In this document: positions 25,260-58,892 of the stretch, piece after piece
Layout of the letters: every line of letters starts with the position of its first letter
How positions within the stretch are numbered: the stretch's first letter is position 1
NCBI GenBank assembly: GCA_017302715.1
Contig: JAFLCD010000003.1
Span: 83,154 to 147,153, forward strand
DNA length: 64,000 bases
From: Deltaproteobacteria bacterium
GTDB lineage: Bacteria; Bdellovibrionota; UBA2394
Direction of reading: 5' to 3'
Program-made: the position numbers and the translations under genes
The notes under the pieces: model-generated
Database searches by the model: none
The model's input: the letters and a program-made list of their open reading frames with translations, nothing else
Told to the model about the DNA's origin: nothing

Positions 25260-25600
25260 TGGATTGGACGGAGGAGCGCCCTTGGGGACGATTCAAAAAC
25301 TTATTGGATGTCGATTTTACCAAAGTCAAAATCATCGAAGTCGATGCAGGTAAGCGTTTAAGTTATCAATCTCACACTAAGCGCCGAGAATCGTGGACAG
25401 TCGCAAAGGGTGAAGCCGTCGTTATTTTAAATGACAAAGAAATCTTTTTAAAAGTAGGCGAGCATATCGATATTCCCTTGGGCGCAAAACATCGTCTTGA
25501 AAATCGAAGTTCAGAAAAGTTGAGCATCATCGAAGTTCAAACCGGAACTTATTTTGGAGAGGACGATATCAAGAGATATCAGGATGATTGGGGGCGTTGA
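25259..25600 (+). CDS. cupin domain protein = C-terminal mannose-6-phosphate isomerase (type II) module, separate ORF
   Basis: 113 aa. ERPWG...YQSHTKRRESWTV..GEAVV...IP.GAKHRLEN...IEVQTG.YFGEDDIKRY matches the C-terminal cupin of bifunctional ManC. TAATG junction with the preceding ORF. Confidence 0.7.
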   Translation: MDWTEERPWGRFKNLLDVDFTKVKIIEVDAGKRLSYQSHTKRRESWTVAKGEAVVILNDKEIFLKVGEHIDIPLGAKHRLENRSSEKLSIIEVQTGTYFGEDDIKRYQDDWGR

Positions 25601-26510: not shown

Positions 26511-26575
26511 AAACTACAATCAAAATCTTAAACGGGTTATCAATTAGAAAACAATCATGAGTTAAGTAGTGAATA

Positions 26576-28600: not shown

Positions 28601-28621
28601 AAGAATTCTCTTGGTGACATG

Positions 28622-30352
28622 CTATAAATTTTCTTCGTTGTGTTCTAAATGGAATTCAATTTTCTCTGAACAAGAATGAATCACTTCTTCTTTATGAGAG
28701 ACGATAATAAGTGTCTTGTGCCCGACAAGCGCTTTTAATTCTGAAAGAATTTCTTTTTCAGTTTTGGTGTCAAGTCCCGCTGTTACTTCATCAAGAATTA
28801 AAATCTTTGGATCGAAATAAAGTGCTCTAGCGAGCCCCAATCGTTGACGTTGACCTCCTGAAAATCGAATGCCTTTATCGCCAACCAAAGAATTTAAGCC
28901 TTCCGGAAGAGATTTGACATAGTCATACAAGCGAGCACCAGCTAAAGCGCTCCAAATTTGCTTATCATCATGCTCTCCACATTCGATGCCAAAAGCTATA
29001 TTTTCTCGAACGGTTCCATCTAGGACAAAAACTGTTTGTGAAACGTAACCGATATTTTTTCTCCAAGAATTAAGATCATCAAAAATATTTAAACCAGCCG
29101 ATAAAATTTTGCCCTCCGAGGGCTCAAGTAGCCCCAAAAGCAAATTAACCATTGTAGACTTTCCGGAGCCAGACGGTCCAAAAAAGGCGACCGCATGATT
29201 TTTTTTTATCGTATGGGATAAATTTTTTAAAATAAATCGGTTGGTGTTTTTATAGCGAAATGAAATATTTTGAATTTCAATTTCGCTATCAAACTTTAAT
29301 TTCAAGTGATCTTCCTTTGGTCGGTCATATGAAATTTTTATTTGATCTAGCTCTCTTTGCAAAAACTCAATTGATGGTTGGAAAAAAGAAACTTGATTTA
29401 CGCAAGAAATGAATCTGCTGATAGATGGCATAATACGATAGGCAGCAGCTATGAAAAGTCCAAGAATAGGAATTGGCGACTCATTACCTCCACTTCTAAT
29501 AAAAATGATTAAAGATATAAAAAGTGCACCACCAATCATAATTATTTCCATCAAAGGCCGCGGCAACTCGCCTAATACACGCATTTTACGTACAGAATCC
29601 GAATGATCATCTACGGCGGCGGAATATCTTTTGAAGAAATATTTTTGGCTACCGAATATCTTTACTTCTTTGATTCCGAGAAAAGTCTGATCAATCCATT
29701 TATAGATTAAAAAACCTTCGCGCTGGGCCCTTGCTCCTGAATTTGCTAGTTTTCTATTCACATAAAAATAATAGACAAAAAGAAAACCGAGAAGAACGAG
29801 GGCCACAATAATAGTGGATGTGCCACTGACTATGAGCAGAAGAGCAAATATCATAATGACGGTAAGTGCTTCATTTATGAGAGAAAGAATTGGCCATAGA
29901 ATGCCATCAAATATATTTGTCACTTCAAGCTCAATAGTTCTGGAAAGTCGATGAGTTTCGCGTTCTAAATGAATCATGTAGGGCGCATGAATATAAGCCT
30001 TCATAAAACGCTTAGAGAGAGAGTTTCGTTCCTCCGAAACCCATCGAGTTTGGCGATCTATGATAAATAATAAAAAAATATTTTTTGTTAAATATAAAAC
30101 TAAAAGCACTAAACTTAAAGTAAGAAGGGCGTGGTGCTGGAAAAAGGGAATAGAAATTCTGTTAACTCGCTCATACCAAGGAGAATTTTGAATATCATTC
30201 ATCTGACTAATGAAACTAATCAGAGGTAATAACAGGCTCATCACTACTATCTCTAAAAATCCAGAGATAGAAAAGAAGAAGAGGAGAAGTAAGATTCTTC
30301 TTTTAGCTCGAGTGTCCAGAATGTGCCAGAGTTGGCTTACTAATTTTGCCAC
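28622..30352 (-). CDS. ABC transporter, fused permease/ATPase (MsbA/PglK-like type I exporter)
   Basis: 576 aa with six N-terminal TM helices. Walker A (GPSGSGKST), signature (LSGGQRQRLGLARAL), Walker B (ILILDE). Confidence 0.85.
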   Translation of the reverse strand: MAKLVSQLWHILDTRAKRRILLLLFFFSISGFLEIVVMSLLLPLISFISQMNDIQNSPWYERVNRISIPFFQHHALLTLSLVLLVLYLTKNIFLLFIIDRQTRWVSEERNSLSKRFMKAYIHAPYMIHLERETHRLSRTIELEVTNIFDGILWPILSLINEALTVIMIFALLLIVSGTSTIIVALVLLGFLFVYYFYVNRKLANSGARAQREGFLIYKWIDQTFLGIKEVKIFGSQKYFFKRYSAAVDDHSDSVRKMRVLGELPRPLMEIIMIGGALFISLIIFIRSGGNESPIPILGLFIAAAYRIMPSISRFISCVNQVSFFQPSIEFLQRELDQIKISYDRPKEDHLKLKFDSEIEIQNISFRYKNTNRFILKNLSHTIKKNHAVAFFGPSGSGKSTMVNLLLGLLEPSEGKILSAGLNIFDDLNSWRKNIGYVSQTVFVLDGTVRENIAFGIECGEHDDKQIWSALAGARLYDYVKSLPEGLNSLVGDKGIRFSGGQRQRLGLARALYFDPKILILDEVTAGLDTKTEKEILSELKALVGHKTLIIVSHKEEVIHSCSEKIEFHLEHNEENL

Positions 30353-30459
30353 TACAATTCATCCCTAAAAAATTTAAAATACCTCTTTCTAAAATTTAAG
30401 CCAAGCTTGTCTATAGTTTGAAACAACTTTGCTAATTCAGCCAAATTCAGTTTACTAAG

Positions 30460-31110
30460 TTGATGAAAGTTCATCTTGGTTGTGGGGACCGTTATTTAGA
30501 TGGATACCTAAATATTGATTTGCCAACTAGTGATCACAGCGTGATGACTCAGTTAAAAATTGATAAGATTGCAAATGTAACTGAGTTATCTTTTCCCAAA
30601 GTTTCGATACAAGAAGTTCGCCTTCATCATTTGTTTGAGCATTTCAATCGCCCGCAATCTTTTGCTTTTATAGCTGCATGGCGGTCATGGCTAGTCCCTT
30701 TTGGCCTTCTTCGAATTGAAGTTCCTGATTTTAGGCGCACTGCTTGGTCAATTCTTTCTCCATTTTCTTCTTCAAAGACTAAAATGACAGGCATTCGACA
30801 TCTATTTGGATCTCACGAGTCTTCATGGGCCATTCATTGTGAGGGTTGGACCGTTGCTTCTCTGACAGATTTGCTAAAAGCTTTTGATTTTAAGATTATC
30901 AAGTGTCAAAAAAACTCTTGGAAGCATACTTACAATTTTGAAATTTTTGCAATTCGTTCTGAAAAAGAAATAAGTCTAGAAATGGCCTGTCAGATAGCAG
31001 AAAAAAATCTTAAAAATTATTTAGTCGACTTCACTGATTCTGAAGTGAAAATGCTGGCGGTATGGAAGAAAAAATTTCAAGAAACAGCAGTAAATTGCTG
31101 GGGAAAATAG
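30460..31110 (+). CDS. hypothetical protein, possible class I SAM-dependent methyltransferase-like
   Basis: N-terminal VHLGCGDRYLDGYLNID and later LHHLFEHF resemble methyltransferase motif I and post-I. Weak. Confidence 0.3.
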   Translation: MMKVHLGCGDRYLDGYLNIDLPTSDHSVMTQLKIDKIANVTELSFPKVSIQEVRLHHLFEHFNRPQSFAFIAAWRSWLVPFGLLRIEVPDFRRTAWSILSPFSSSKTKMTGIRHLFGSHESSWAIHCEGWTVASLTDLLKAFDFKIIKCQKNSWKHTYNFEIFAIRSEKEISLEMACQIAEKNLKNYLVDFTDSEVKMLAVWKKKFQETAVNCWGK

Positions 31111-31113
31111 ATC

Positions 31114-32292
31114 TTGAAAGTTTTACATACTGTTGAATTTTACCATCCAAGCAAAGGCGGAGCTCAGGAGGCTATTCGGCAAATCTCAGAAGCATTGGTG
31201 AGGCTGGGACATGAAGTCACAGTTGCTACCACTTTTGATCCTGATAGAAACTTTTCGGAACTAAATGGAGTAAAAATTAAGGAATTTTCGATAAGTGGAA
31301 ATTGGGTAAGTGGGGTTAAAGGTGACCTCGAGGGTTACAGAAATTTTGTGCGAAATTCTAATTTTGATATTGTATTGAATTATGCCGCTCAACAGTGGAC
31401 GACGGACGCACTTTTAGATGTATTGCCAGAAATTAAATCAAAGAAAATATTGGTGCCCTGTGGTTTTTCTGGCCTTTATAATTCCCATTACAAAAATTAT
31501 TTTCAAAAAATGAGGGAATGGCTTTTGCTCTATGATAGTTGTATTTTTTTATCTCGGAATTATCGCGATTATGAATTTGCAAAAATTGTTGGTATTAAAA
31601 ATATACAGTGTATTCCAAATGGAGCTTCTCGAGCGGAGTTTGAATTGGAATTTGATTGCTCTCTTCGAAGACAATTAGGAATTCCTAATGACGCTTTTCT
31701 TATTTTGCATGTGGGATCATTCACAAAACTTAAGGGTCAGTACGAGGCTTTAAAGATCTTTTCTCTCTCTAAGATTAGAAATTCTTATTTTTTACTTATT
31801 GGAAATACTTCAAATTACTTTGATTTTCTTCGCTGTAAATTTTTGTGCCATTTTATCAATATAAAATCCTTCTTCTCAGGTTCTAAAAAGAAAGTTTTAA
31901 TTCGAAATCTTCCTCGTGAATCTACGGTCGCAGCTTTTCATGAAGCTGATCTTTTTCTTTTTCCTTCTCGAATCGAATGCTCTCCTCTTGTTTTATTTGA
32001 AGCTATGGCATCTAAATGCGCGTTCTTAGTGAGCAGAGTTGGTAATGCTGAAGAAATTATTTCTTTGTCGAATGGCGGTTTTTTGATTGAGGGAGATCTT
32101 GACCCATTGGGGTATTCTGTCCCGAATCTAAAAAATGGAGCAAAAAAATTATCTGATCTTTGGCAAAATCCTACTTTAAGAAATGAGAGTGCTCAGAATG
32201 GCTTTTTGACTTGGCAAGAGTCGTTTACATGGGAGTCAATAGCTGTGCGTTATGAGCATTTATACAAAAAGCTCATTAGTGAAAAAATATGA
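31114..32292 (+). CDS. glycosyltransferase family 1 (GT4-type)
   Basis: GT-B architecture: N-terminal KVLHTVEFYHPSKGGAQE and a C-terminal EX7E-like region (FPSRIECSPLVLFEAMA). TTG start. Confidence 0.75.
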   Translation: MKVLHTVEFYHPSKGGAQEAIRQISEALVRLGHEVTVATTFDPDRNFSELNGVKIKEFSISGNWVSGVKGDLEGYRNFVRNSNFDIVLNYAAQQWTTDALLDVLPEIKSKKILVPCGFSGLYNSHYKNYFQKMREWLLLYDSCIFLSRNYRDYEFAKIVGIKNIQCIPNGASRAEFELEFDCSLRRQLGIPNDAFLILHVGSFTKLKGQYEALKIFSLSKIRNSYFLLIGNTSNYFDFLRCKFLCHFINIKSFFSGSKKKVLIRNLPRESTVAAFHEADLFLFPSRIECSPLVLFEAMASKCAFLVSRVGNAEEIISLSNGGFLIEGDLDPLGYSVPNLKNGAKKLSDLWQNPTLRNESAQNGFLTWQESFTWESIAVRYEHLYKKLISEKI

Positions 32293-33401
32293 GTTATAAA
32301 ACCCCACCTTTGATTTCAGTTTTGATGCCCGTCTTCAACGGAGAGAAATATCTTGATGCTGCTATTAGAAGTGTTTTGCGACAAAGTTATTCTCATTTTG
32401 AGCTTATCATTTTAAATGACGGTTCTACTGATGGGAGCGCAAAAATAATTCAATCCTTTAAAGATCCTCGAATTATCTATATCAAAAATGATCAAAACTT
32501 AGGGCTCGTCAAAACTCCAAATCTTGGAATTGAAAGGGCTAGAGGTCAGTATATTGCTCGAATAGACAGTGATGACATTCTCTTTTCTGATCGCTTCATG
32601 AAGCAGGTGGATTTTTTAGAATCTCACCCGGACGCCGTAGCGTGTGGAAGCTGGTATTTTACTATGAAGTTTTTACCAAATACCTTAGTAAAAGTGCCAA
32701 CCCGGCCTGAAGACATTGCTTCGGAGCTTATCTTCAAGAATGTAATGGCTCATTCGAGTATGATGATGCGAGCTGATAGCCTTCGGCAGTATAAAATTTT
32801 CTATTCGGATAAATACCCATTTATCGAAGACTGGGAATTATGGTTAAGACTTTCTAAAGTAGGGCGACTCTATAATATTCCGGAGCCATTGTTTCTTTAT
32901 CGGCTGCATTCTCAAAGCGTAAGCTTTAAAAACTTCGATGTTCAAAATCAAAGTATTCAAAAAATTATCGCCTCCTCCTTTGAAAGTTTTGGAATCGATT
33001 TGTCGGTCGAAGAGAGTCAGGCATTGTACGACTTGGTAAATTCTGATCGTAATCTTCAGTTCGATTTATTAAAAAAAGTTGAAAGTTTGCTTCTGAAAAT
33101 AAAACAAAGAAATGAAATTCAAAAAGTGATTGCCACTCAAAGCTTTGAAATGACTTTAGCTCGTCTGTGGTTTCGTATTGTGCTCAAATTTTCTAAGCGA
33201 GGTTTAGATACTTGGAAAACTTATTATCAATCGCCGTTAAGAAGGCAGGATATAGTCTCTTCATTTTCTTTATTCGTTTTTTTTATGCTTTGTTTTTTCA
33301 AGCAGAGATTAAGACTTCATTCTATAAAACAATGGATGGAGTCTTGGACTTCTAAAGCTTTTTATAGAGCTCTATTTGAGATTGTCGCCGTGAGAAAATA
33401 A
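32289..33401 (+). CDS. glycosyltransferase family 2
   Basis: ISVLMPVFNGEKYLDAAIRSVLRQSY..FELIILNDGSTDGS and a DxD motif (IDSDDIL). ATGA overlap with the upstream GT4. Confidence 0.75.
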   Translation: MSYKTPPLISVLMPVFNGEKYLDAAIRSVLRQSYSHFELIILNDGSTDGSAKIIQSFKDPRIIYIKNDQNLGLVKTPNLGIERARGQYIARIDSDDILFSDRFMKQVDFLESHPDAVACGSWYFTMKFLPNTLVKVPTRPEDIASELIFKNVMAHSSMMMRADSLRQYKIFYSDKYPFIEDWELWLRLSKVGRLYNIPEPLFLYRLHSQSVSFKNFDVQNQSIQKIIASSFESFGIDLSVEESQALYDLVNSDRNLQFDLLKKVESLLLKIKQRNEIQKVIATQSFEMTLARLWFRIVLKFSKRGLDTWKTYYQSPLRRQDIVSSFSLFVFFMLCFFKQRLRLHSIKQWMESWTSKAFYRALFEIVAVRK

Positions 33402-33436
33402 AAAACCCCCGAAGATTTCTCTGCGGGGGTTTTGAA
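33402..33436. terminator. bidirectional rho-independent terminator hairpin between convergent GT2 gene and pilin gene
   Basis: AAAAACCCCCGAAGATTTCTCTGCGGGGGTTTTG: a 6-bp GC stem (CCCCCG/CGGGGG) flanked by an A-run and a T-run. Confidence 0.7.
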
Positions 33437-33458
33437 AATACTTTTGCTAACTTGATTA

Positions 33459-34058
33459 TTAGTTAAGTTCGCCGAAGATCTGAATTCCACCAGCATTTGG
33501 TGTGCCATTAGTAACGGATATATCTCTCCAAAATGCAGAGTAAGGAGCTGATCCATCAAGATCTCCTTGAGCAATCGCGGATACGGATTGTGTGCTGCTG
33601 CTACCATCGGTAATAGCTCCAGCTGCTGATGCAGTAGCTAAGTTAGTACTTGCCGCTGTAACTAAAGCTGTACCAGCAGGAGTGCCGCTCAGTACGCCAG
33701 CGTTATAAGCGAACAAAACAGGAGACGAACTTGCGAATCCAAGTACGTTAAAGGCTCCAGCGTCTACGCCGCTTTCCCAGGCTACTTTAGCACCAGTAGG
33801 AGTTGTTCTTGGAACAGAAACTGTTTGAGCCATAAAAGTTGGGACAGCTTCACCACCGCCCGAAGAGGCAGCTCTTGGACGTGTGAAGAAAGTTACTTCA
33901 GCATCAACCAAGTTTTTCAAAAGCAAAGGTGCTTCTGCAGTTTTCGATCGTTTGATGTAATTTAAGAACGCTGGGATCGCCACAGCGGCCAAGATTCCGA
34001 TGATCGCCACAACGATCATAAGCTCGATAAGGGTGAAACCCTTTTTTGTCATTTTCAT
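33459..34058 (-). CDS. type IV pilin, second copy (short 6-aa leader, G|FTLIELM)
   Basis: MKMTKKG then [24 protein letters not shown]..., a classic type IVa prepilin N-terminus. Ala/Gly/Ser/Thr-rich C-terminal domain. Confidence 0.8.
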
Positions 34059-34353
34059 AAAGTCCTCCTAAAAAAATTTATTTTCATCCCTTCTCGAGCG
34101 CGGCTTTGAGATCGCACCGAGAAATTCCTCTACCGACCATCATCTCCTAAAGCATAAGTCATGCCAAAGAATTTCAAGCGAAAATCCATGACGCGCTGCG
34201 GCTCTAAGTTATGAAAATCTCTAGGTAAGTTTAATGTTTTCGTTTCTCTGAACCAAGCTAAATTATCGGCACAAAATGTAACGAAAAATGTCGCTTTTGA
34301 CGTGCTTTAGTCTTTTGTGACAAATTTTGTCGCCCTCTATAAGATCTAGTTTC

Positions 34354-35415
34354 ATGTCGGTTTCGGTAATTATTCCCTGCTTAAACGAAGAAGGCTCCAT
34401 CGAGGAATGTATTCGTTTGGTGAAAGCGGCGTTTGCGGGCGAGGGCAAACTCGAAATTATAGTCGCTGACAACGGTTCTACGGATCGTTCGAGTGAACTC
34501 GCCAAAAAAGCTGGTGCCCGGGTGGTCGAAGAGCGCCGCCAAGGATATGGTTCAGCCATTTTATGTGGAATCCGCGAAGCGACAGGCGAGTTCTTGGTCA
34601 TAGGAGACGCCGACAATACTTATGACTTTAGGGACGCTGCCATTCTTGTTGAAAAATTAAAAGAAGGTGCCGAGTTTGCAATCGGCGATCGGATTCACGG
34701 TGAAGTCGATAAAGGTGCGATGCCTTGGTTGCATATGCATTTAGGTACGCCGGTGTTGACCTGGGTGCTCAATCAATTTTTTGGATGCCGTGTTCACGAT
34801 ATTAACTGCGGACTTCGTGCGATTCGTCGCGAGGCCGTTGAACGTTTGCGCTTACGATCTCCCGGAATGGAATTCGCGAGCGAGATGGTGATTCATGCGC
34901 AAAAAGCCGGACTTAAATTTGCAGAGACTCCGATTCGCTATTACAGACGTCATCACGGTCAAGCGAAGCTCAGAACATTTCGCGATGGCTGGCGACATTT
35001 GCGTTTCATTTTGCTCTGCGCTCCTTTTCCTCTTTATTTTTTGCCGGCGGCGGCGAGTGCTATTTTGAGTGCATATTTTTATACGCAGCCTCGGTTAGGG
35101 TTTTTGGTGCTTGCAAGTTTATTTAGCTTGGCGGCGTTTCAGTTTTTTATTTTCGGCGTTTTAGCCAAAACTTATTTATGGGTCGCCGATTCTTTTTTGG
35201 TCGATAGGGGATTTGGAAGTTTGATAGATAAATTCAAACTCGAATATGGAATTCTCACTTCGCTTTTATTTTTATTGGGCGGAATCGTTTTAGTGAGAGA
35301 ATTCGACATTTCAAATTTGATTCGCGGTGCATCACTGATTGCTCTTTCGCTTCAAATTTTCTTCTCCTCGTTTTTACTCTCTACGATCATGTTTAAAAAA
35401 CGAGACACGATTTAA
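34354..35415 (+). CDS. GT2 polyprenyl-phosphate glycosyltransferase (DPM1/GtrB/ArnC-like) with C-terminal TM helices
   Basis: VSVIIPCLNEEGSIEECI...IIVADNGSTDRS...GYGSAIL.G...GEFLVIGDADNTYD followed by hydrophobic helices. Start set to the internal ATG (MSVSVII). Locally higher GC than neighbouring genes. Confidence 0.7.
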   Translation: MSVSVIIPCLNEEGSIEECIRLVKAAFAGEGKLEIIVADNGSTDRSSELAKKAGARVVEERRQGYGSAILCGIREATGEFLVIGDADNTYDFRDAAILVEKLKEGAEFAIGDRIHGEVDKGAMPWLHMHLGTPVLTWVLNQFFGCRVHDINCGLRAIRREAVERLRLRSPGMEFASEMVIHAQKAGLKFAETPIRYYRRHHGQAKLRTFRDGWRHLRFILLCAPFPLYFLPAAASAILSAYFYTQPRLGFLVLASLFSLAAFQFFIFGVLAKTYLWVADSFLVDRGFGSLIDKFKLEYGILTSLLFLLGGIVLVREFDISNLIRGASLIALSLQIFFSSFLLSTIMFKKRDTI

Positions 35416-39327: not shown

Positions 39328-40350
39328 TCATCCTAGTCGCAGCGGTGGAGAAGTGGAAAGCAAAGTCTGATGACGCAGCGTGTAAAAATGATCATGCCAT
39401 TGTCTGTGATGGTTTGTGCAGAGTAAGACGAGATTCGCTGGTGAATTCGTACCTCCCTGACTGACCGGAACTCGATGATGAATATCTATATAATGAGAGC
39501 TTTCGCATTTAAGTCCGTTAGCTTTCCTAAACTGACACTGGCTTTTGTCCCTTTGAAAGACAAAGACTCTCGTAACAGGCGAAATCGGAATTCTAACCTT
39601 CAATTTATTTAAGTTCTTCACAAGTGGTCCCGGGACCACTTGTGAAAGCTCTTGTGAGAGCGATTCGGGCTCATTTTTATTCGGGAGAATCTCTGCACTC
39701 TTGGCGCTAATTGATTTTAATTCCTTCTCCCGAGTCGTTTTTGAGACGTCCTTTAAATTTTTCATCAGCGGATCATTTTTTTTCAAAAATTCATCCACAG
39801 TTTTTTCTAACGTCTGTTCAAGATTAAAATTAGTCCGTGATTTATTCGCACACAAAGTTTGAGCTCTCTTTATTTTCTTAAGCAATGAATCCGAAATTTC
39901 AATTCGAAATAGATTTCGATTTTCTGAGACCGGCCGAATAAATTCTCTTTGAATACTTTCTGGAAACTTCTTAGCTACTTCTTTTTCAAGTTCTACTCTT
40001 GTCATCGCAGTCGCCTTTGCAATCCATTCGCTTTGATTTTCTTTGGTTAAAATTGGAACAATTCGCCGCGCCTTTGAGACCGAAATATTTCCAGAAATAA
40101 TTTCTTTCTTGAGCTCAGGGATCTCTTTCACTTTTCGAGATATTTTTGAAAAAGTATAGGCATTCGCTTCAGAGAATTGCAGGGCCTCAACACAATAAGA
40201 AAATAAACTCGAATACCCTAAAGTTAAATAAATTTTCTCTTCGCTTACTTTTTCCAGGGTTTCTATAAGTTCGCCCTCGGTTTTTCGATAACATTGCGAG
40301 AGTGAAATAGCTTTTTCATGAATCTTATTTTGATCAGAATTTAATTTCAT
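39328..40350 (-). CDS. HNH endonuclease domain protein (N-terminal DUF222-like region + C-terminal HNH)
   Basis: C-terminal CQFR.ANGLKCESSHYIDIHHRVPVSQGGTNSPANLVLLCTNHHRQWH (HNH with zinc-ligand cysteines). Start set to MKLNSDQ, which has an AAGGAG RBS 7 nt upstream on the minus strand. Confidence 0.65.
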   Translation of the reverse strand: MKLNSDQNKIHEKAISLSQCYRKTEGELIETLEKVSEEKIYLTLGYSSLFSYCVEALQFSEANAYTFSKISRKVKEIPELKKEIISGNISVSKARRIVPILTKENQSEWIAKATAMTRVELEKEVAKKFPESIQREFIRPVSENRNLFRIEISDSLLKKIKRAQTLCANKSRTNFNLEQTLEKTVDEFLKKNDPLMKNLKDVSKTTREKELKSISAKSAEILPNKNEPESLSQELSQVVPGPLVKNLNKLKVRIPISPVTRVFVFQRDKSQCQFRKANGLKCESSHYIDIHHRVPVSQGGTNSPANLVLLCTNHHRQWHDHFYTLRHQTLLSTSPPLRLG

Positions 40351-40473
40351 TTTCCGCTCCTTACTTTCTCTATTTTTGCTCTCGCGAATTAAAATTTTTT
40401 TCAAAATTTTCTTTCTGGCGCATGGATAAAGCAGCGGTGAGATTTAGCAAGGGAAAAATATTTAATTGAGCGA

Positions 40474-49256: not shown

Positions 49257-50423
49257 ATGTCAAAAAATGCCAATCAAATTCTCGCCAACCAAATTTTGCA
49301 GCAACTTGCCGATGGACGGTTTAAGGCTGAAGGCCCTTTTGTTGGAATCGATCAATTTTTAGATTCGATTATCGAAAATATTCCCGACATGATTTTTGTA
49401 AAAGATGCCGCTGAGCTTCGTTTTGTTCGGTTTAATAAGGCAGGTGAAGATTTGCTTGGTTACAGTCGCGATCAACTCATCGGAAAAAATGACTATGATT
49501 TTTTTCCTGCCCGAGAAGCTGAGTTTTTTATTCAGAAAGATCGCGAAGTTTTGCATGGAAGAAAATTGGTAGAAATTGCAGAAGAGCCTATTCACACACG
49601 CCTTAAGGGAGCAAGGATTCTGCATACAAAAAAAATTCCTATTTACGATGCCAATGGGGAGCCCGCATATCTTTTAGGAATTTCAGAAGATATCACCGAT
49701 CGAAAGCAAGCCGAGGTAAAGGAGCAACGAAATCGAGAGCTCGAACGATCAAATGCCGAACTCGATCAATTTGCTTCTATTATTGCACATGATCTTCGTG
49801 AACCGATGAGAATGATCTCTATTTATATGAGTCTTTTGCAAAATGAATTTCGCGAAATTATTTCGCCGGTAGCGAAAGAGTATGTAGATTTTGCAATTAA
49901 AGGTACGGCACGAATGAATTCTCTCTTGAAGGATTTACTCGAGTATTCTCAGGCGGGGATTACGAGAGAGCCCATAAAGCCAGTCAACACGATAAAGGTT
50001 TTAAATGATGTCGTTCAAAATTTGACGGCATCGATTGAATCTAAAAACCCTGAAATTGAAATTTCGAATTTACCTAATGTACGCGGAAATTACGGACAAC
50101 TCATTCGCTTGTTTCAAAATCTCATCGAAAATTCTTTAAAGTATTCTGGCCCGCAACCCATCAAAATTCGTGTTTATGCTGAAGAAAGCGATCAAGAATG
50201 GAAATTTTTTGTTCAAGATAACGGCCTTGGCATCGAACCTCGCTACCACGAAAAAATATTTCAGATTTTTCAGCGCTTAAACCCCTCTGATGAAGTTGAA
50301 GGAACAGGTATCGGTCTTTCTATCTGTCGTCGCATTGTCGAAAATCACGGCGGAAAAATCGGCTTATTCTCCGAACTCGGAAAAGGCGCCACTTTCTTTT
50401 TTACGCTACCGAAAGAGATTTAA
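49257..50423 (+). CDS. cytoplasmic PAS-domain sensor histidine kinase
   Basis: PAS region, H-box (ASIIAHDLREPMR), and N/G1/G2 boxes (NLIENSLKYS, DNGLGIEP, GTGIGLSI). Confidence 0.8.
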   Translation: MSKNANQILANQILQQLADGRFKAEGPFVGIDQFLDSIIENIPDMIFVKDAAELRFVRFNKAGEDLLGYSRDQLIGKNDYDFFPAREAEFFIQKDREVLHGRKLVEIAEEPIHTRLKGARILHTKKIPIYDANGEPAYLLGISEDITDRKQAEVKEQRNRELERSNAELDQFASIIAHDLREPMRMISIYMSLLQNEFREIISPVAKEYVDFAIKGTARMNSLLKDLLEYSQAGITREPIKPVNTIKVLNDVVQNLTASIESKNPEIEISNLPNVRGNYGQLIRLFQNLIENSLKYSGPQPIKIRVYAEESDQEWKFFVQDNGLGIEPRYHEKIFQIFQRLNPSDEVEGTGIGLSICRRIVENHGGKIGLFSELGKGATFFFTLPKEI

Positions 50424-50445
50424 TGCTCGTGCCCGGAATCGAACC
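50424..50445 (-). other. 22-nt duplicate of the tRNA-Leu 3' end (T-arm + acceptor), att-like direct repeat / tRNA remnant
   Basis: tgctcgtgcccggaatcgaacc is identical to 50592..50613 of the tRNA gene. Further into the 146-nt spacer the similarity is weaker (GACGCCC...GCGGACC echoing the variable arm). Confidence 0.6.
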
Positions 50446-50590
50446 CTGAAGCCGAGTGATTAACGAGGGTTCAGCCATCCAAGTAATTCATCTCGCGGAG
50501 CGAGATAAGATAAATAAGGTGACGCCCGTAGGGCGGACCGGGTCATGAATTAAAAAGTTTTGCAGAATTTTAGAAATTGGTTTTGTTAGT

Positions 50591-50677
50591 TGGTGCTCGT
50601 GCCCGGAATCGAACCGGGACGCCCTTGCGGACCCAGGATTTTAAGTCCTGTGCGTCTACCAATTCCGCCACACGAGC
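50591..50677 (-). tRNA. tRNA-Leu (anticodon UAA), type II tRNA with long variable arm, CCA encoded
   Basis: Reverse complement GCTCGTGTGGCGGAATTGGTAGACGCACAGGACTTAAAATCCTGGGTCCGCAAGGGCGTCCCGGTTCGATTCCGGGCACGAGCACCA folds as a cloverleaf: 7-bp acceptor, 3-bp D stem, CAGGA/TCCTG anticodon stem with loop CTTAAAA, and a TTCGATT T-loop. Confidence 0.85.
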
Positions 50678-50732
50678 TCAAAACATAGACAAGAAAATAA
50701 ACCTTAAAGTCCGGCCGAACTCAAATGAAATT

Positions 50733-53201
50733 CTATTTAAACTTACCCATCAATCTTAAGGTCACGGGCAGCAAGATCAGCGCTGAAGCCAAGCAGGTGA
50801 ATTCACCGATGATGGCCAACGTAGCAAAGCTTACGAGGGCCTGATTAGAGGCGCCGAGGAGGGTGTAGTAGCCGATGATGGTAGTCAAAGAACAAAGAAA
50901 AACTGCGGCTCCCGAAGTTGATAGAATTTTTCCAAAATTTTTGTAGTTATCTTGTCGACATCTCAAAAAAACATTAATCGGATAATCCACGCCGATTCCA
51001 AAAGTGAGCGGCAGCGCAATGAAATTGAAAAAATTATATTTCAAATCCATAAATCCCTGAATGCCGAGCATCCACCAGGTTGCGACGCAAAGTAAAAATC
51101 CCATCATGATGCCGCTGCCTAAACTGCCCGCTAAAAAAATCGCCGTGATGATGACGCCTAAAAAAGCGATCGCAGAAATAACAGGAGCATCTCTTTTTAA
51201 ACCACGCAAAAGATCCGCCAGAATAAAACTTTCACCCGATGCCTGCACCACCGTCTTTGTTTTTGGCAGTTCGATGCGTTGCAAGCTCGCCGTGTAATTT
51301 AAAAGATTAATTCCATCGTTTAAAGGTTTGTCAGAATCTGGATTTACAAAAGCAATGTATCCTGTTCGCCCATCTTTTTCTGAAAATCTTCGCGCAAGTT
51401 GAGGCGGCAATTCTTTAATCTGTGGCGGATCAAGCTTCATATTCTCACGAATATTTTTAGCCATTTCTTTTTGTTCCGAATGTTTGAGTGCCGGATCGCT
51501 TAAAAGTTTTTTCACTTTTAGCATCTCAGTCTGTCGATCTTTTAAGTCAGGAGTATTTTTGGGAAGTAAATCATAAAGACTCGCGCAAGATTTGATGACA
51601 TTTTTTTCAGGAGATAGTGAAGCCGAAAGTTTTGTGATCGCTGGGCAGAATTCTTCAGCCTGTTCGAGTGAATCAAGCATCACCACAGAAGGAGTCATGC
51701 TGGATGAAAAAACTTTATGAATTCTTCTTTCTACGGCCTCCGTTCCTTCGGTGAGGGCGACTTTGTTTCGTAAATTGTCAAAATTATATTCGATGGGATC
51801 TTTAATGAGGCGAAAAAAACCTATACCAGCGATGAGAGAAGCTAGAATTAACAAACTAGCTATGAATTGAGGGTGTTTGGTTAAATAATTTCCAAAAGCT
51901 CTCACAGATTTAGAAAAATATTTCTCAAGTGGATTGGCATAATTTTTAACCGGCCATCGAAGCTCAAGTTGATAGAGCCAAAGTGGAAGAAGTGAATAAG
52001 CAGCTATCCAACAAAGCGCAATTCCTAAACATCCAATAAAACCAAATTGAGAAAGTCCTTTGTTGTCGGCAAAGAGCAAACTTAAAAAAGCGACCACCGT
52101 TGTAATTGAAGCGATTAAAGTTGCTGTGCACGTTGCACCAATCGATTGTTCAATAGCCTCGCGCGCCGAAACTTTTTCTTTTCTCAGCTCGAGATAGCGA
52201 GAAATCAGAATCACTCCGTAGTTGATACCGGTTCCGACGACCAGGCTTCCTAAAAAAGCAGTTTGTGTATTTAAATAGCCGATATGTAATTTGGTTATTC
52301 CAAAAGTCCAAGCCACTGCGAACATAAGATTCACAATTAAAAGCGCGATCGTTCTAAACGACCAAAAAAATAAAAAGACAACTGAAAGAATCAGCGCGAC
52401 TAACAAAAGTGCGGTGTCGATGATGTCACTTCGAATTGTATTAAATTCATAAATCGCGCTTTGCACGCTTCCGGCTAAGTTGACCTTCATCTCTGGATGA
52501 AAAGATTTTGGATCGAGCTCATCGATCATGTTCTGAATTTGCTTTGTAAGTTCAACGCTTCCGCTGAATCCTAAGCTGCTTCCGAGGGGTCGTAGCGAAA
52601 GAACCATTATTTTTCCTTCGTCTGCACTTAAGTAGGCATCTCGGTATTTTAAAAACATTTGCAATCGCGGATCGACTCGCTCAATGGGGCTCAATTTTTT
52701 TTCTGAAGATTCATTTTTGTCGCCCTCATCTAAGCCAAGACCAATCGCAGAATCTTTTGCTGTCGCAATTTCATCCTCGATTTCAGCTTCAAATTTCTTT
52801 AATTCTTCGAGCCCGAGATAATGCAATCCATACTTATGAATAAAATCTTGAACGTCTTGGTAGCGATATTCAAAAAATCGGAGAGATTTTCCAACGAGAG
52901 GTTGAAGTTTTGTCGCTAAAGCTTCTGTGAACTTACGATTGCTTTCGTATTCAGGGCCTTCGATTCCTACAAGAAGCAATCCCGTTCCACCGATTCGCTC
53001 GCCAGCTTTTTTTAATGAAACAACACTCGAAAGTTTTTCGGGTAGAAGTTCTGCGAAATCTGTTCGAAGTTGCAGTCCTGTAGCAACCCAAACGCTAAGT
53101 GCAGTGATTATAAAAATAAATAAGTTGAGCGCTATTCGATGACGATAGAGCCAATCAAAATAAACTTTAGCCGATCGAATTTTCGAATTCTTAAACAGCA
53201 T
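50733..53201 (-). CDS. MMPL/RND-superfamily membrane transporter (two 6-TM bundles with large periplasmic loops)
   Basis: 822 aa with an N-terminal TM helix, a large loop, a 5-6-TM cluster, a second large loop and a second TM cluster. This is the MMPL/HpnN-like sterol-sensing-domain architecture. Confidence 0.7.
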   Translation of the reverse strand: MLFKNSKIRSAKVYFDWLYRHRIALNLFIFIITALSVWVATGLQLRTDFAELLPEKLSSVVSLKKAGERIGGTGLLLVGIEGPEYESNRKFTEALATKLQPLVGKSLRFFEYRYQDVQDFIHKYGLHYLGLEELKKFEAEIEDEIATAKDSAIGLGLDEGDKNESSEKKLSPIERVDPRLQMFLKYRDAYLSADEGKIMVLSLRPLGSSLGFSGSVELTKQIQNMIDELDPKSFHPEMKVNLAGSVQSAIYEFNTIRSDIIDTALLLVALILSVVFLFFWSFRTIALLIVNLMFAVAWTFGITKLHIGYLNTQTAFLGSLVVGTGINYGVILISRYLELRKEKVSAREAIEQSIGATCTATLIASITTVVAFLSLLFADNKGLSQFGFIGCLGIALCWIAAYSLLPLWLYQLELRWPVKNYANPLEKYFSKSVRAFGNYLTKHPQFIASLLILASLIAGIGFFRLIKDPIEYNFDNLRNKVALTEGTEAVERRIHKVFSSSMTPSVVMLDSLEQAEEFCPAITKLSASLSPEKNVIKSCASLYDLLPKNTPDLKDRQTEMLKVKKLLSDPALKHSEQKEMAKNIRENMKLDPPQIKELPPQLARRFSEKDGRTGYIAFVNPDSDKPLNDGINLLNYTASLQRIELPKTKTVVQASGESFILADLLRGLKRDAPVISAIAFLGVIITAIFLAGSLGSGIMMGFLLCVATWWMLGIQGFMDLKYNFFNFIALPLTFGIGVDYPINVFLRCRQDNYKNFGKILSTSGAAVFLCSLTTIIGYYTLLGASNQALVSFATLAIIGEFTCLASALILLPVTLRLMGKFK

Positions 53202-53396: not shown

Positions 53397-55670
53397 ATGA
53401 GTAAAGAGATGAATATTATAGAATTTGAACTTCCTGCCTTTGGTCGAATGGCTGCATCTAAATTGCGTGAAACTCCGCAAGTTTCAGACATTATCAATTC
53501 TTTATCTCAACCCATTATTGCTCTCGATAGGCGCTTACATGTGACTGCGATTAATAAAGCTTTTCACGAAGCTTTTTTTCTGTGGACAGGTGTTCGTCTT
53601 TATCTCGGCATGAATTATTTAGAAGTTCTTCCTAAAGAAGTTGTTCCTGAGCGTTTAACTTTTTATCGCCGCGCATTTTCAGGCGAAGGATTTTCTTTAG
53701 AACAGGATTATAATTTGGCCGGAGAAATTCATACATTTCTCGTAACTTATGATCCTATTTATTCTGGCGGCGAGGTCATCGGAATCATTGGAAGCGCAAA
53801 AGACATTACCGAACAAAAGTTAATCGAAAAAAGTTTAAGAGAAGCTAATTTAAAATTTGAAAATTCTTTTAGGTTTAATTCAGTAGGGATGGCGTTGATC
53901 GAACCCACTGGCCAATTTTTAAAAGCAAATGCGACGCTTTGTAAAATGCTCGGCTATTCAGAAGAAGAAATGAAAACAAAATCATTTCCGATGATTACTC
54001 ATCCAGAAGATTTAGAAAAAAGTTTTGATATTTTTCAGAGACTTGTAAAGGGCGAGCTTGAATGGGCTCACATCGAAAAAAGATATCTTCATAAGTCGGG
54101 CAAAGTTATTCAGGCAATTTTAAGTTCTTCATTCGTTCGTGAAGAAGATGGAACGCCTCTTTATTTTATCTCAGTCGTTCAGGATATTTCGGAACGTAAA
54201 CGTGCCGAAGATGAATTGTTAAATAGCGAGCGACGCGTCGTCAATATGATGAAAGTAGCTCCAGTTGGAATTTATCAAACGGATGTCGAGCGAGATTGTA
54301 TCTATGTCAATGATCGATGGTGTGAGTTGACGGGACTTTCTTCTCAAGAGGTGACCGGAAACTCTTGGATTAAATCTGTTTATCAAGAAGATGTCCGAGA
54401 TGTAGAGCAAGAGCTCAAGCGATGCCAAGAATCGAAAGATGTATTTTCTTTAGAATATCGACTGCGCAAATCGACAGGTGAAATTACTTGGGTGCACGGA
54501 CGAGAAATTCCGCTCCGAGATGAAAAGGGAGCTTTGGTTGGCTATATGGGAGCCATTCAAGATATTTCTAAAATTAAAGAGGCTGAAAAAGTTCGCGAAA
54601 GACTTATCTATATATTAGATGCCACGCCTGACATCGTAGGCATCTTTGATATTCATGGAAAAAGTATTTATCTCAATGAAGCTGCGCGAGAGGTTTTGGG
54701 ATTAGATGCAGATGATTTAGATGTTGGACAAACAAGTTGGGAGATGTATCCGACTTGGGCCGAAGAACTTATTCGCAATCAAGGAATTCCCGCTGCTTCT
54801 CGCGATGGTTTTTGGAAAGGCGAAACTTCAATTATTCATCACGATGGACGTGAGATTCCGCTCTCTCAAATTATTTTAGCTCACAAAAATAAAGATGGAG
54901 TTGTTGAATATTTTTCAACCATTGGTCGAGATATGTCGCGACAAAAAGAATTTATGGCAGAGCTTGCAAGATCAAATACTGAGCTCGAGCAATTTGCTTA
55001 CGTTGCTTCTCATGATTTGCAAGAACCTCTGCGGATGATTGTCAGTTATTTGCAGTTTTTAGATTTGGAATATCGCGAGCAATTAAGTCCTGAAGCAGAT
55101 GAATATTTGCACTTCGCGGTCAACGGCGCGAAGAGAATGAGCAGACTGATTAAAGATCTTTTAACTTATTCCAAAGTAGGCCGTAGCGAATTTAAAACGA
55201 AAAGTGTCGATTGCGGAGCTATTTTAGATGTCGTTCAAGAGCAACTTCGCACCATGATTCAACAGGCTGAAGGATTGGTTGAAGTCGGACCATTGCCAAC
55301 AGTGAATGCAGATGAATCTCAGTTGATGAGACTTTTTCAAAACTTAATGGAGAATGCGATTAAATATAGAGGAAAAATTTCTCCCAAAGTCAAAGTGAGC
55401 GCTCATCAACAATCTGGAAAATGGGTTTTCTGTGTTTCAGATAATGGTCGCGGTTTTGAAATGAAAGATGTGAATAGAATTTTTAGACTCTTTCAGCGTT
55501 TGCATGATCGAGAAGAATATCCTGGTAGTGGAATTGGTCTGGCCATCGCGAAGTCTATTGTAGAACGCCACGGTGGAAAAATTTGGGCGGAATCTAAAGT
55601 AAATGAAGGCTCGAATTTTTATTTTACACTTTCTGATTGTATGGCAGCCGAGAAGGAACTTGTGAGATGA
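53397..55670 (+). CDS. multi-PAS sensor histidine kinase (cytoplasmic)
   Basis: 757 aa with several PAS/PAC repeats, H-box (ASHDLQEPLRM), and N/G1/G2 boxes (NLMENAIKYR, DNGRGFE, GSGIGLAIA). Confidence 0.85.
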   Translation: MSKEMNIIEFELPAFGRMAASKLRETPQVSDIINSLSQPIIALDRRLHVTAINKAFHEAFFLWTGVRLYLGMNYLEVLPKEVVPERLTFYRRAFSGEGFSLEQDYNLAGEIHTFLVTYDPIYSGGEVIGIIGSAKDITEQKLIEKSLREANLKFENSFRFNSVGMALIEPTGQFLKANATLCKMLGYSEEEMKTKSFPMITHPEDLEKSFDIFQRLVKGELEWAHIEKRYLHKSGKVIQAILSSSFVREEDGTPLYFISVVQDISERKRAEDELLNSERRVVNMMKVAPVGIYQTDVERDCIYVNDRWCELTGLSSQEVTGNSWIKSVYQEDVRDVEQELKRCQESKDVFSLEYRLRKSTGEITWVHGREIPLRDEKGALVGYMGAIQDISKIKEAEKVRERLIYILDATPDIVGIFDIHGKSIYLNEAAREVLGLDADDLDVGQTSWEMYPTWAEELIRNQGIPAASRDGFWKGETSIIHHDGREIPLSQIILAHKNKDGVVEYFSTIGRDMSRQKEFMAELARSNTELEQFAYVASHDLQEPLRMIVSYLQFLDLEYREQLSPEADEYLHFAVNGAKRMSRLIKDLLTYSKVGRSEFKTKSVDCGAILDVVQEQLRTMIQQAEGLVEVGPLPTVNADESQLMRLFQNLMENAIKYRGKISPKVKVSAHQQSGKWVFCVSDNGRGFEMKDVNRIFRLFQRLHDREEYPGSGIGLAIAKSIVERHGGKIWAESKVNEGSNFYFTLSDCMAAEKELVR

Positions 55671-56110
55671 CCCCATCTGGAAGGCATATTTTACTAGTCG
55701 AAGACAATTTGGCAGATGCCAAATTGGCTATGAAAATTTTAAATCAATCGGCAGAAATTGAGCGCGTTCATCATGTAACGGATGGTGATCAAGCGATGAA
55801 TTTTCTCAATCGAGTGGACGCATTTGTAGAAGCCCCGATTCCAGATTTGATAATTTTAGATTTAAATTTGCCGCGCCGAGGTGGTCGGGAAATTTTAAAA
55901 GAAATAAAAGAGAATCCAAGGTTTCAACAGATTCCAGTCGTCATTTTGACGTCTTCAGATTCCGAAAGCGATGTGATGGCTTGCTTGCGTTTGCATGCAA
56001 ATGCCTATGTCACAAAGGCTTTAGATCTTTTTCAATTTGTTGAAGTTTTACATTCTTTAGAAAAATTTTGGCTAGTGTCTGCAAAACTGCCAATGAAATC
56101 GAGTCAATGA
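55667..56110 (+). CDS. single-domain response regulator (CheY/Rcp1-like receiver)
   Basis: ILLVEDNLADAKL...DLIILDLNLP...T..IPVVILTSS...K: a receiver fold with no output domain. ATGA overlap with the kinase stop. Confidence 0.8.
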   Translation: MTPSGRHILLVEDNLADAKLAMKILNQSAEIERVHHVTDGDQAMNFLNRVDAFVEAPIPDLIILDLNLPRRGGREILKEIKENPRFQQIPVVILTSSDSESDVMACLRLHANAYVTKALDLFQFVEVLHSLEKFWLVSAKLPMKSSQ

Positions 56111-56865
56111 TGAGCGATCAAATTTACACACAACAACTTCTCTTGGTTGAAGATAATCCTGGCGATGCTTTTTTAGTGAAAAAATATTTGTCAGCGCAAA
56201 ATACGAATCGTTTTGAGATTACGCATGTGACTCATCTCGCAGCTGCGATAGATGCTCTCCAATCAAAAGCTTTCTATGCCATTCTTTTAGATCTCTCCCT
56301 CCCTGATTCGCAGGGACTTGAAACTATCCGTCAGATCGCCAAACTTTTTCCTAAAGTTCCTGTCGTCGTTATGACAGGCCTTGATGATGAAGCTACAAGC
56401 ATGAATGCACTCAAAGAAGGTGCACAAGATTATCTATTTAAGTCTGAGAGAGATTTGGTAAATCTTGAGCGCTCCATTAAATATGCGGTGGAGAGAAATC
56501 GTATTCAAGAATCTAAAATTGAAGCAGGCATTCGAAATCGTGAAGGTAGTGCCGAAACCATGACGTCTGTTCAGAGTGGTAACCTTAAATTAAATCTTAT
56601 CAATCAAACGGTAAGCATTACTCATAATGAGCAATCGCAAACATTTGATTTGCCACCTCGGGAATTTAAACTTTTATTTTTTCTTATTAAAAATGAAGGA
56701 AAATCAGTTACTCGTTCCGAAATTTTAAATCATGTATGGAGTGATGAGGGCTCTAAGCCAAATCCTCGATGTATCGATACACTTATTAGCTCTCTTAAGA
56801 AGAAGTCAGACTTTTTTGGAAAACGAATCGAGTCCATTTACGGTACTGGTTATAAATTTATTTAA
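56107..56865 (+). CDS. response regulator, receiver + long linker + OmpR/PhoB-type winged-helix DNA-binding domain
   Basis: Receiver (LLLVEDNPGDAFL...ILLDLSLPDSQG...VPVVVMTG), then a linker of about 60 aa, then trans_reg_C-like TFDLPPREFKLLFFLIKNEGKSVTRSEILNHVW...RCIDTLISSLKKK...IYGTGYKF. Confidence 0.7.
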   Translation: MMSDQIYTQQLLLVEDNPGDAFLVKKYLSAQNTNRFEITHVTHLAAAIDALQSKAFYAILLDLSLPDSQGLETIRQIAKLFPKVPVVVMTGLDDEATSMNALKEGAQDYLFKSERDLVNLERSIKYAVERNRIQESKIEAGIRNREGSAETMTSVQSGNLKLNLINQTVSITHNEQSQTFDLPPREFKLLFFLIKNEGKSVTRSEILNHVWSDEGSKPNPRCIDTLISSLKKKSDFFGKRIESIYGTGYKFI

Positions 56866-57029
56866 TTTATTAACATTTAATAAAATTTAAATTGCGAGTG
56901 ATTTTAAGTACATAAACTTTAGTTAGATGAGCCAATTTCTGGGCGATTTCACTCGACAAGATTTCTAATTTTGCGATCTTAAATTAAACATAGGGTTAGT
57001 TCGTTCGTATCATCGAGAAGGGATAAATT

Positions 57030-58892
57030 ATGGCTGCAGAATATTCAAAAGAAGTTTCCAGCGTAATGGGATTGCATGTTGAGGGTTCTTCTACAAAATC
57101 GGCGAGACCGATTTTGATTTTACTTATCGAAGACCGATTACCTGACGCAAAATTATTTCAGAAAATTTTATCTCAAGCAGGAGACGCAGATCGTTACTGG
57201 TTGATTCATGTAAAAAGATTATCGGTTGCTCTTCGAATGCTTGAGCGCGAGAGAGTCGATGTCGTCATGCTCGATTTAACTTTGCCTGACAGTCATGGCC
57301 TTGGCGCAATCGAATCGATTCGCAGTGTTACACCTGGTTTGCCGATTGTTGTTCTTACCGGTTTAGAGGATGATTCGGTTGGAGTGGATGCGCTCAAAAA
57401 AGGTGCGCAGGATTATCTTTTAAAAGATTCTATTACGGCAGAAAGTTTATCTGCCTCGATCAAGCATGCAATTGAAAGACAAAAACTTTGGTCTAATCTC
57501 GAAGACGAACTTCAAAAAGAACGCTATGTTTCTGATTTTGATGAGCTTACAAAATTAGCAAGCCGCCAACTTTATGAAACGAGATTAGAGTACGCACTTG
57601 AGCAAGCTCACAGAGAGTCCAAGGTGGTTGGCATCTTTTTTATGGATGTGAATGGTTTTCGTAAAGTGAACGAAGACTTTGGTTCTCAGGCGGGGGACTA
57701 TGTTCTTAAAACAGTTTCGGATCGTTTGAGTAAGCTCGTTCGAAAAAACGATACAGTGTCTCGATACGGAGATGATAAATTCGCTCTGACTTTATACGAT
57801 ATTCGCGATGCGGATTCTGCCGCAAAGGTTGCAAAAAAGATTTTGCAATTATTTTCTGAGCCAGTCTTGTGGCAAGATCAAATCATTTCATTAACAGCAA
57901 GCCTCGGGATATCCGTATATCCTGCAGATGATCTTCGAATGAATCGGCTCCTAGGGGCTGCAGAGGCTTCACTCTATCAAGCAAAAGCTCAGGGAAAAAA
58001 TACATATGCCTTTTTTTCAAGACTTTTAAATTTAAAAATTAATGAGTCCAATTTGCTCGAAATAAAACTGAAAGAGGCAATAGAGACAAAAAATTTAAAA
58101 GTTTCTTATTCACCTCTTTTCAATTTGAGTTCTAGGACGGTGAGAGGTTTTGCAGCAAAAATTGAATTTTTAGATTTAGAATTAGAAAACGCTTCAAAAT
58201 CTCAATTGATTTCCTTGGCCGATCAGGCCGCATTAATTCCTGAAATGAATCGATGGTTGTTAAGATCTGTTTGTGGACAAATTGTGGAACTTTATAAATC
58301 TGGCTTTCCAAAAACGATGATGTCTTTGCGGTTATATCCTGAGCAACTTCATCATCCAGATTTCATCGAGAGTGTTAGATCCGCTTTGGCAGAATTTTCT
58401 TTAGAGCCTAGTTTGTTACACTTTGATTTTTCTGAGAGTGTAATTCCAGAGCGCGGAAGTGAGAGAGCCCCTGAAAGAATGGATGAAATTTTAGAACGTT
58501 TAAGTGAAATTGGGGTTCGTTTAAATCTGTGTGATTATGGAGTAGGTCACTCATCATTAACCTATCTGACTCACCTTCGAAAATTTGCGTTGGATGCTAT
58601 TAAGATCCCGCCAACACTTATCCACAAACTCAATCGCTCTAAAGAAGCGCGTGATTTAGTGGAATCCGCGATCGCGATTGCTCACCAAATGAGATTGAAA
58701 GTGATGGCAGAAGGTGTTGATCAGCAAGATTTATTAAGAAAGCTTGAAGAGCTTGGTTGTGATGAGGCTCATGGATCAGAACTCGGAGAAAATCTTCACT
58801 CCGAGTCTATTCCAGAGTTTCTTCAAAGAGAGATTGCAAAACTTTCTGATCAAATTCCTGAGAAATATACTCATCCCGGTCTTTCGACTTGA
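57030..58892 (+). CDS. response-regulator receiver - GGDEF - EAL protein with degenerate GGDEF (RYGDDKF) and degenerate EAL motifs
   Basis: Receiver (ILLIEDRLPDAKLF..VVMLDLTLPDSHG), GGDEF domain with RYGDDKF in place of RxGGDEF, and an EAL domain where the EAL triad position reads AAK and DDFGTGYSS reads CDYGVGHSS. The C-terminal EGVDQQDLLRKLEELGCDEAHG region is retained. Confidence 0.8.
   Translation: MAAEYSKEVSSVMGLHVEGSSTKSARPILILLIEDRLPDAKLFQKILSQAGDADRYWLIHVKRLSVALRMLERERVDVVMLDLTLPDSHGLGAIESIRSVTPGLPIVVLTGLEDDSVGVDALKKGAQDYLLKDSITAESLSASIKHAIERQKLWSNLEDELQKERYVSDFDELTKLASRQLYETRLEYALEQAHRESKVVGIFFMDVNGFRKVNEDFGSQAGDYVLKTVSDRLSKLVRKNDTVSRYGDDKFALTLYDIRDADSAAKVAKKILQLFSEPVLWQDQIISLTASLGISVYPADDLRMNRLLGAAEASLYQAKAQGKNTYAFFSRLLNLKINESNLLEIKLKEAIETKNLKVSYSPLFNLSSRTVRGFAAKIEFLDLELENASKSQLISLADQAALIPEMNRWLLRSVCGQIVELYKSGFPKTMMSLRLYPEQLHHPDFIESVRSALAEFSLEPSLLHFDFSESVIPERGSERAPERMDEILERLSEIGVRLNLCDYGVGHSSLTYLTHLRKFALDAIKIPPTLIHKLNRSKEARDLVESAIAIAHQMRLKVMAEGVDQQDLLRKLEELGCDEAHGSELGENLHSESIPEFLQREIAKLSDQIPEKYTHPGLST

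Follow-up and report, generated by a model that had tools for sequence, protein, structure and literature searches.

Within the 64-kb window, by which is meant the whole stretch of DNA that was analysed, ARAGORN identified a single tRNA gene. This gene encodes an intact tRNA-Leu(UAA) of 87 nt on the minus strand (50591-50677), is recognised by the Rfam tRNA family RF00005 with a score of 60.9 bits, and includes the terminal CCA in its own sequence (50591-50593). Upstream of it lies an MMPL/RND exporter gene (50733-53201, minus strand; Pfam), and a sigma-70-like promoter match, TTAAGA-18-TAGAAT (50730-50759, minus strand), precedes the tRNA 5' end by about 53 nt. This match comes from a consensus scan only and is weak, one site having been found where 0.7 would be expected. 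Convergent with the tRNA is a gene for a PAS/HisKA/HATPase histidine kinase (49257-50423, plus strand), whose stop codon abuts a second, orphan copy of the tRNA 3' end (50424-50445, minus strand). A spacer of 145 nt without detectable homologue (50446-50590, minus strand) separates the orphan copy from the tRNA; it may be the remnant of a mobile element or the trailer of the tRNA.

The duplicated segment is a 22-mer, TGCTCGTGCCCGGAATCGAACC on the plus strand and GGTTCGATTCCGGGCACGAGCA when read on the tRNA strand, which occurs exactly twice in the 64-kb window, at 50424-50445 and 50594-50615. The copy within the tRNA (50594-50615, minus strand) is an exact match and, placed on the ARAGORN cloverleaf, covers positions 52-73: the last two nucleotides of the T-stem 5' strand, the T loop, the T-stem 3' strand, the acceptor 3' strand and the discriminator A. 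The other copy, equally exact and attR-like, is an orphan tRNA 3'-end fragment that lies outside any tRNA. The two copies form direct repeats, with the orphan downstream of the tRNA in the same orientation, a gap of 148 nt between them (50446-50593, CCA included) and a start-to-start distance of 170 nt. The recurrence and the short gap had both been reported in the preliminary description of this DNA; the repeat is borne out, with the tRNA copy lying 2 nt away from the 50592-50613 given there, and the gap measures 148 rather than 146 nt.

A search of the window that allowed up to three mismatches (Hamming distance, k-mers) brought up no third copy, the next best match having six, so that further copies of the kind that would delimit an island, as envisaged earlier, are absent within these 64 kb. 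The 22-mer had no match in 100 dinucleotide shuffles, and a chance origin of the repeat is excluded. Nor does the repeat reflect a T arm common to several tRNA genes, a possibility raised at the outset, since the second copy lies outside any tRNA. A 22-nt near-match in locus L080 falls in repetitive coding-like sequence and is not a tRNA fragment.

The orphan copy begins 1 nt past the kinase stop codon TAA (50421-50423), in agreement with its earlier placement directly after that stop, and overlaps no conserved-domain coding sequence. On the tRNA strand, the next three bases are TTA in place of CCA; they are the kinase stop codon in reverse complement, and the DNA beyond is antisense to the kinase coding sequence. 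The tRNA genes of Bdellovibrionota in the loci retrieved from relatives encode CCA. A retro-copy of a mature tRNA, or a primer-binding site, was ruled out because the orphan copy lacks CCA. The same arrangement, nucleotide for nucleotide, is present in three independent metagenome assemblies of the same species (L001-L003), and it is thus not an assembly artefact.

Both edges of the identity are well defined. The 5' edge is sharp and lies inside the T stem, 2 nt before the T loop, and the 3' edge is the discriminator base. Beyond the 22 identical positions, five of the next eight nucleotides match (27/30 overall), after which similarity falls to background. In the orphan copy, CAGGG stands opposite CCGGG, which disrupts the T stem.

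The weak similarity that extends past the 22 nt would be in keeping with a truncated second tandem tRNA-Leu(UAA) gene, or a pseudogene, the 5' two-thirds of which had been replaced or had decayed, and the spacer contains a string reminiscent of the variable arm (GGTCCGC...GGGCGTC). However, this echo, to which attention had been drawn before, does not hold up: 48 of 1000 shuffles and 42 of 874 other windows score as well or better, and it stands in the wrong register, about 75 nt from the T arm. The degenerate tRNA-like fragments proposed for the spacer likewise failed to appear, as ARAGORN in relaxed, intron and tmRNA modes and Infernal with Rfam at E<=10 returned none, and alignment revealed no colinear similarity to the 5' 62 nt of the tRNA (p 0.09-0.29). 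The orphan copy also has a disrupted T stem and no CCA, in a lineage that encodes CCA. Finally, a perfect 22/22 match directly beside background similarity argues against the gradual decay of a duplicated gene, and a 5/8 match past the core is what would be expected of similar, non-identical core-type sites. An origin from a second tRNA gene is thus highly improbable.

The spacer is heterogeneous in composition. The preliminary description of a GC-rich, hairpin-rich sequence applies to the 100 nt adjoining the orphan copy (50446-50545), where GC reaches 53%, compared with 40% in the window, and where three hairpins occur, those named earlier among them, but not to the 45 nt beside the tRNA (50546-50590), which are AT-rich at 22% GC. 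The first hairpin, GAACCCT-(18 nt)-AGGGTTC (50441-50472), is apparent in the sequence and in minimum free energy folds of both strands, and the final 5 nt of the orphan copy form part of its first arm. The second, ATCTCGC-GGA-GCGAGAT (50490-50506; sequence and folds), has 7 bp, and the third, CGCCC-GTA-GGGCG (50523-50535; sequence), has 5 bp. A T-rich tract starts 5 nt after the third hairpin on the tRNA strand. This hairpin could be a weak terminator at best and fails the terminator scan, which detected no canonical terminator between the tRNA and the orphan copy.

On the AT-rich side, the trailer of the tRNA, CCA-ACTAAC...TTCTAAAA (50582-50590 and 50562-50569, minus strand), resembles the trailer of a tRNA-Leu(GAG) gene, CCA-ACTAACTTCTAAAAAA, in another Bdellovibrionota MAG (L053, 4258-4271, minus strand). 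The resemblance may reflect a 3' trailer motif typical of the lineage, or chance. It hints that the trailer of the intact tRNA is native rather than derived from an element.

Folding predicts a four-way junction of 125 nt (50424-50548; z -2.7 to -3.1), which is closed by a helix between 50538-50548 and that portion of the orphan copy which derives from the acceptor and T stem. Such a fold raises the alternative of a functional structured RNA of about 125-170 nt, either a trailer of the tRNA or, on the other strand, a 3' UTR of the kinase gene; it might be co-transcribed with tRNA-Leu and released by processing, or might act as a terminator or stabiliser for the convergent genes. Both strands fold moderately better than shuffled sequences (z -2.3 to -3.1), with one of 42 control windows reaching a value as low, and transcription through the region would be compatible with the promoter-like site upstream of the tRNA and with the lack of a canonical terminator between the tRNA and the element. 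The signal is nevertheless equal on both strands, as is produced by inverted repeats in DNA, and a z-score of this size is not rare. Searches with Rfam 15 at E<=10 returned no family in the spacer other than chance snoRNA-type matches (E 3-10). A covariance model of the predicted junction, run against the window and the loci of 27 relatives, returned only itself, and no homologue of the element was recovered from the window, these loci, phages, plasmids or IMG/VR, which leaves no covariation evidence. The earlier suggestion of a small structured RNA thus retains its fold, with a z-score of about -3, but gains neither a family match nor a homologue, and a functional RNA appears very unlikely.

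Further searches for the source of the spacer gave no homologue in the window, in phage and plasmid collections (blastn) or in IMG/VR (exact 20-22-mers). The phage, plasmid and IMG/VR searches matched phage tRNA-Leu genes at the tRNA part only. No IHF consensus site was found in the spacer. A transposon or MITE was rejected, as the two ends of the spacer, on inspection, carry no terminal inverted repeats. Spacer positions 50475-50488 (plus strand) match a distant coding region at 3656-3669 (minus strand) exactly over 14 nt in inverted orientation (blastn-short E 0.058), probably by chance.

The genes flanking both sides of the locus are ordinary chromosomal genes. Those on the kinase side encode release factor RF3, a type III glutamine synthetase, a C92 peptidase, FabD, an S8 subtilase and the kinase itself, whereas those on the MMPL side encode the MMPL exporter, a PAS kinase, two response regulators, a GGDEF/EAL protein and PntAB. 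No integrase or mobile-element domain was detected by Pfam among 30 ORFs of at least 120 aa between 23 and 64 kb, and GC content is flat, with no composition shift at the locus. By protein similarity, the nearest named relatives are MAGs of Bdellovibrionales and Bacteriovoracaceae.

Other features of the neighbourhood deserve mention. Divergent from the MMPL gene, 53397-58892 (plus strand) encodes a multi-PAS histidine kinase of 757 aa, a stand-alone receiver, an OmpR-type regulator and a receiver-GGDEF-EAL protein; this signalling cluster is conserved in L091, L093 and the P0001 contig, with a shorter kinase of 513-523 aa in these relatives. An ORF of 358 aa (39328-40404, minus strand) immediately upstream of prfC (RF3) has a C-terminal HNH endonuclease domain (Pfam E 1.4e-6) and adjoins an ORF of 171 aa without family match. 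Further away, 23118-35415 holds a large glycosyltransferase cluster (GT2, GT4/GT1) with a nucleotidyl transferase, an ABC exporter and, at 33459-34058, a pilin-like protein with an N-methylation motif; by its gene content, this looks like a surface polysaccharide locus.

The histidine kinase next to the orphan copy has a full-length C terminus and no adjacent response regulator. Its closest full-length homologue, with 58% identity (L094, 797-2423), is followed 8 nt downstream by a response regulator, and the other best matches have about 50-51% identity, all named sources among them being Bacteroidota. The missing partner, unlike the situation in L094, and the Bacteroidota origin of the named matches at about 50% suggest that the kinase is a displaced or horizontally acquired orphan. 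Eighty GTDB loci with kinase homologues of at most 51% identity were retrieved, and in none of the 60 scanned for tRNAs does a tRNA-Leu(UAA) lie beside the kinase homologue.

Gene order is conserved on either side of the locus. The block MMPL - PAS kinase - response regulator - GGDEF/EAL - LPG synthase is kept in the P0001 contig, L091 and L093, with the MMPL gene at its end. The tRNA-Leu gene stands at the end of this block, and the L091 and L093 contigs stop inside its D arm; these Logan contigs probably end there because tRNA-Leu genes share k-mers. In both relatives (L091, 8460-10781 and 10905-10928; L093, 1-2477), whose MMPL protein is 57% identical, a second, convergent MMPL paralogue lies between the MMPL gene and tRNA-Leu, and this paralogue is absent from the window. 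The tRNA-Leu acceptor stem reads GCCTCTG in the relatives and GCTCGTG in the window. Further relatives have no tRNA after the MMPL gene, and a search of JGI metagenomes with MMPL gave two distant matches only.

On the kinase side, the block subtilase - FabD - … - GSIII is conserved in the P0242 contig and in L095. A same-strand DEAD helicase gene precedes the subtilase gene in L095, where neither a kinase gene nor a tRNA gene occurs within 7 kb, and the end of a same-strand gene precedes it in the P0242 contig, again with no kinase. In the closest relative (JGI 3300050046), whose MMPL and subtilase are 75% and 67% identical, the MMPL gene is followed by a 241-nt gap and then by unrelated genes, including a DUF433 gene. 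The comparison of strains and relatives thus comprises three identical contigs of the same species, a closest relative with a different gene layout, and other contigs that break inside the tRNA. Sparse as it is, this evidence points in a single direction: the 3' side of tRNA-Leu appears to be a lineage-specific junction of two conserved blocks, with the kinase gene and the 170-bp unit at the junction.

Such a junction could also have arisen without an integrase, through a lineage-specific rearrangement that brought the MMPL-tRNA and kinase-subtilase blocks together and copied or kept 22 nt of the tRNA end, by deletion, translocation or templated synthesis associated with repair. The synteny breakpoint at the locus, the orphan status of the kinase, whose L094 homologue precedes a response regulator, and the lack of an integrase among the ORFs of at least 120 aa between 23 and 64 kb are all compatible with this course of events, as is the position of the kinase gene flush with the fragment, from which neither a trailer nor a CCA nor a terminator separates it. 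Random breaks, however, would not be expected to fall at structural boundaries of a tRNA in an att-like orientation and position, and an exact 22-nt repeat across 148 unrelated nucleotides is unlike the product of simple slippage or tandem duplication. A rearrangement of this kind is therefore regarded as unlikely.

The reading favoured here, at slightly better than even probability, is that the locus is a decayed scar of site-specific integration at tRNA-Leu(UAA). Support for it is circumstantial, and it is the best available reading. It is suggested by the exact terminal 3' fragment (position 52 to A73), which lies downstream in the same orientation with sharp edges, and by the synteny breakpoint on the 3' side of the tRNA. 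An element with a tyrosine integrase would have inserted at the T-loop/3'-end sublocation of tRNA-Leu(UAA). The attP of such elements contains the tRNA 3' end (PMC4383910, PMC9897764), so that integration would have rebuilt an intact tRNA on the attL side (50591-50677) and displaced the other copy downstream as the orphan fragment on the attR side (50424-50445). Later deletions and local rearrangement would then have removed the integrase and the cargo, leaving 148 nt between the att cores and placing the orphan copy next to the kinase gene, a flank not native to it. The model predicts an attP of the form ...GGCTTCAG-core-CCAACTAAC..., or in longer form …CTCGGCTTCAG-GGTTCGATTCCGGGCACGAGCA-CCAACTAACAAAACC…, and precise excision of the 170-bp unit would join the tRNA core directly to TTAAATCTC. 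Both the integrase origin of the repeat and the element origin of the spacer are inferred.

Of the att-like scar put forward in the preliminary description, the repeat geometry fits, but no integrase was found among the ORFs between 23 and 64 kb, the 148 nt contain no recognisable element sequence, and no shift in composition accompanies them. In addition, TTA rather than CCA follows the orphan copy, a point that the scar model leaves unexplained. As TTA and antisense coding sequence take the place of a native trailer, a second event flush with the discriminator base must be assumed.

Islands integrated into tRNA genes typically have a regenerated tRNA at attL and a displaced 3' tRNA fragment at attR, the signature used by Islander, and crossovers occur in three subsites, namely the anticodon loop, the T loop and the T/acceptor junction (PMC4383910). 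As in such islands, an intact tRNA and its cognate fragment are found here on the same replicon, and the fragment is an end fragment that lies downstream in the same orientation without overlapping a conserved domain. The identity starts at position 52 in the T stem/loop, in keeping with one of these subsites. By contrast, the 148 nt between the tRNA gene and the fragment hold no integrase gene, and Pfam detected no integrase domain in ORFs of at least 120 aa within 23-64 kb. Islander requires an island length of 2-200 kb (PMC4383910), whereas the interval is 148 nt here, with no third copy in the window to delimit a larger island. The locus further differs from Islander islands in that it has no cargo and in that TTA and antisense coding sequence, instead of CCA and a native trailer, follow the fragment.

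The locus also resembles CIMEs, cis-mobilizable elements that are decayed remnants of ICEs or IMEs and have kept attL and attR but lost the genes for integration and transfer (PMC5704250). In both cases, recombination genes are absent, and at this locus the direct repeats at the tRNA 3' end, putatively att sites, flank 148 nt of non-coding DNA. CIMEs are, however, kilobases long, derive from identifiable ICEs and are mobilised by them, whereas the present unit is 170 bp, and no related ICE or IME parent element was found in phages, plasmids or IMG/VR. Fragments of tRNA genes are commonly the attR sites of integrated elements (PMC9897764), and the orphan copy is like these in being a partial 3' tRNA sequence presumably generated by the integration of mobile DNA. 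The fragments described there flank about 9-23 kb of viral or ICE DNA and, at 44 bp for example, can be called as tRNAs; the 22-nt fragment of this locus, in contrast, is called by no tRNA finder.

It is highly unlikely that the 170-bp unit is active, whether as a minimal cis-mobilizable element served by a tRNA-Leu-specific integrase encoded elsewhere or as a structured RNA of about 125 nt derived from the trailer. In the latter case, the closing helix would be provided by the tRNA's own 3'-end copy, and the RNA would be co-transcribed with tRNA-Leu and freed by tRNA-processing enzymes. Under the integration-scar reading, the scar would now be inert, and its hairpins would at most give 3' end structure to the convergent tRNA and kinase transcripts.

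The feature is of an ordinary kind, and its one unusual point is how little DNA is left between the repeats. It would illustrate the decay of an island with survival of its att repeats down to an interval of 148 bp, below the size filters of finders such as Islander. There is no evident functional consequence beyond annotation and genome history; both the tRNA and the genes around it are undamaged. In that history, the locus marks tRNA-Leu(UAA) as a past hotspot of integration and rearrangement in an uncultured Bdellovibrionales-like bacterium.
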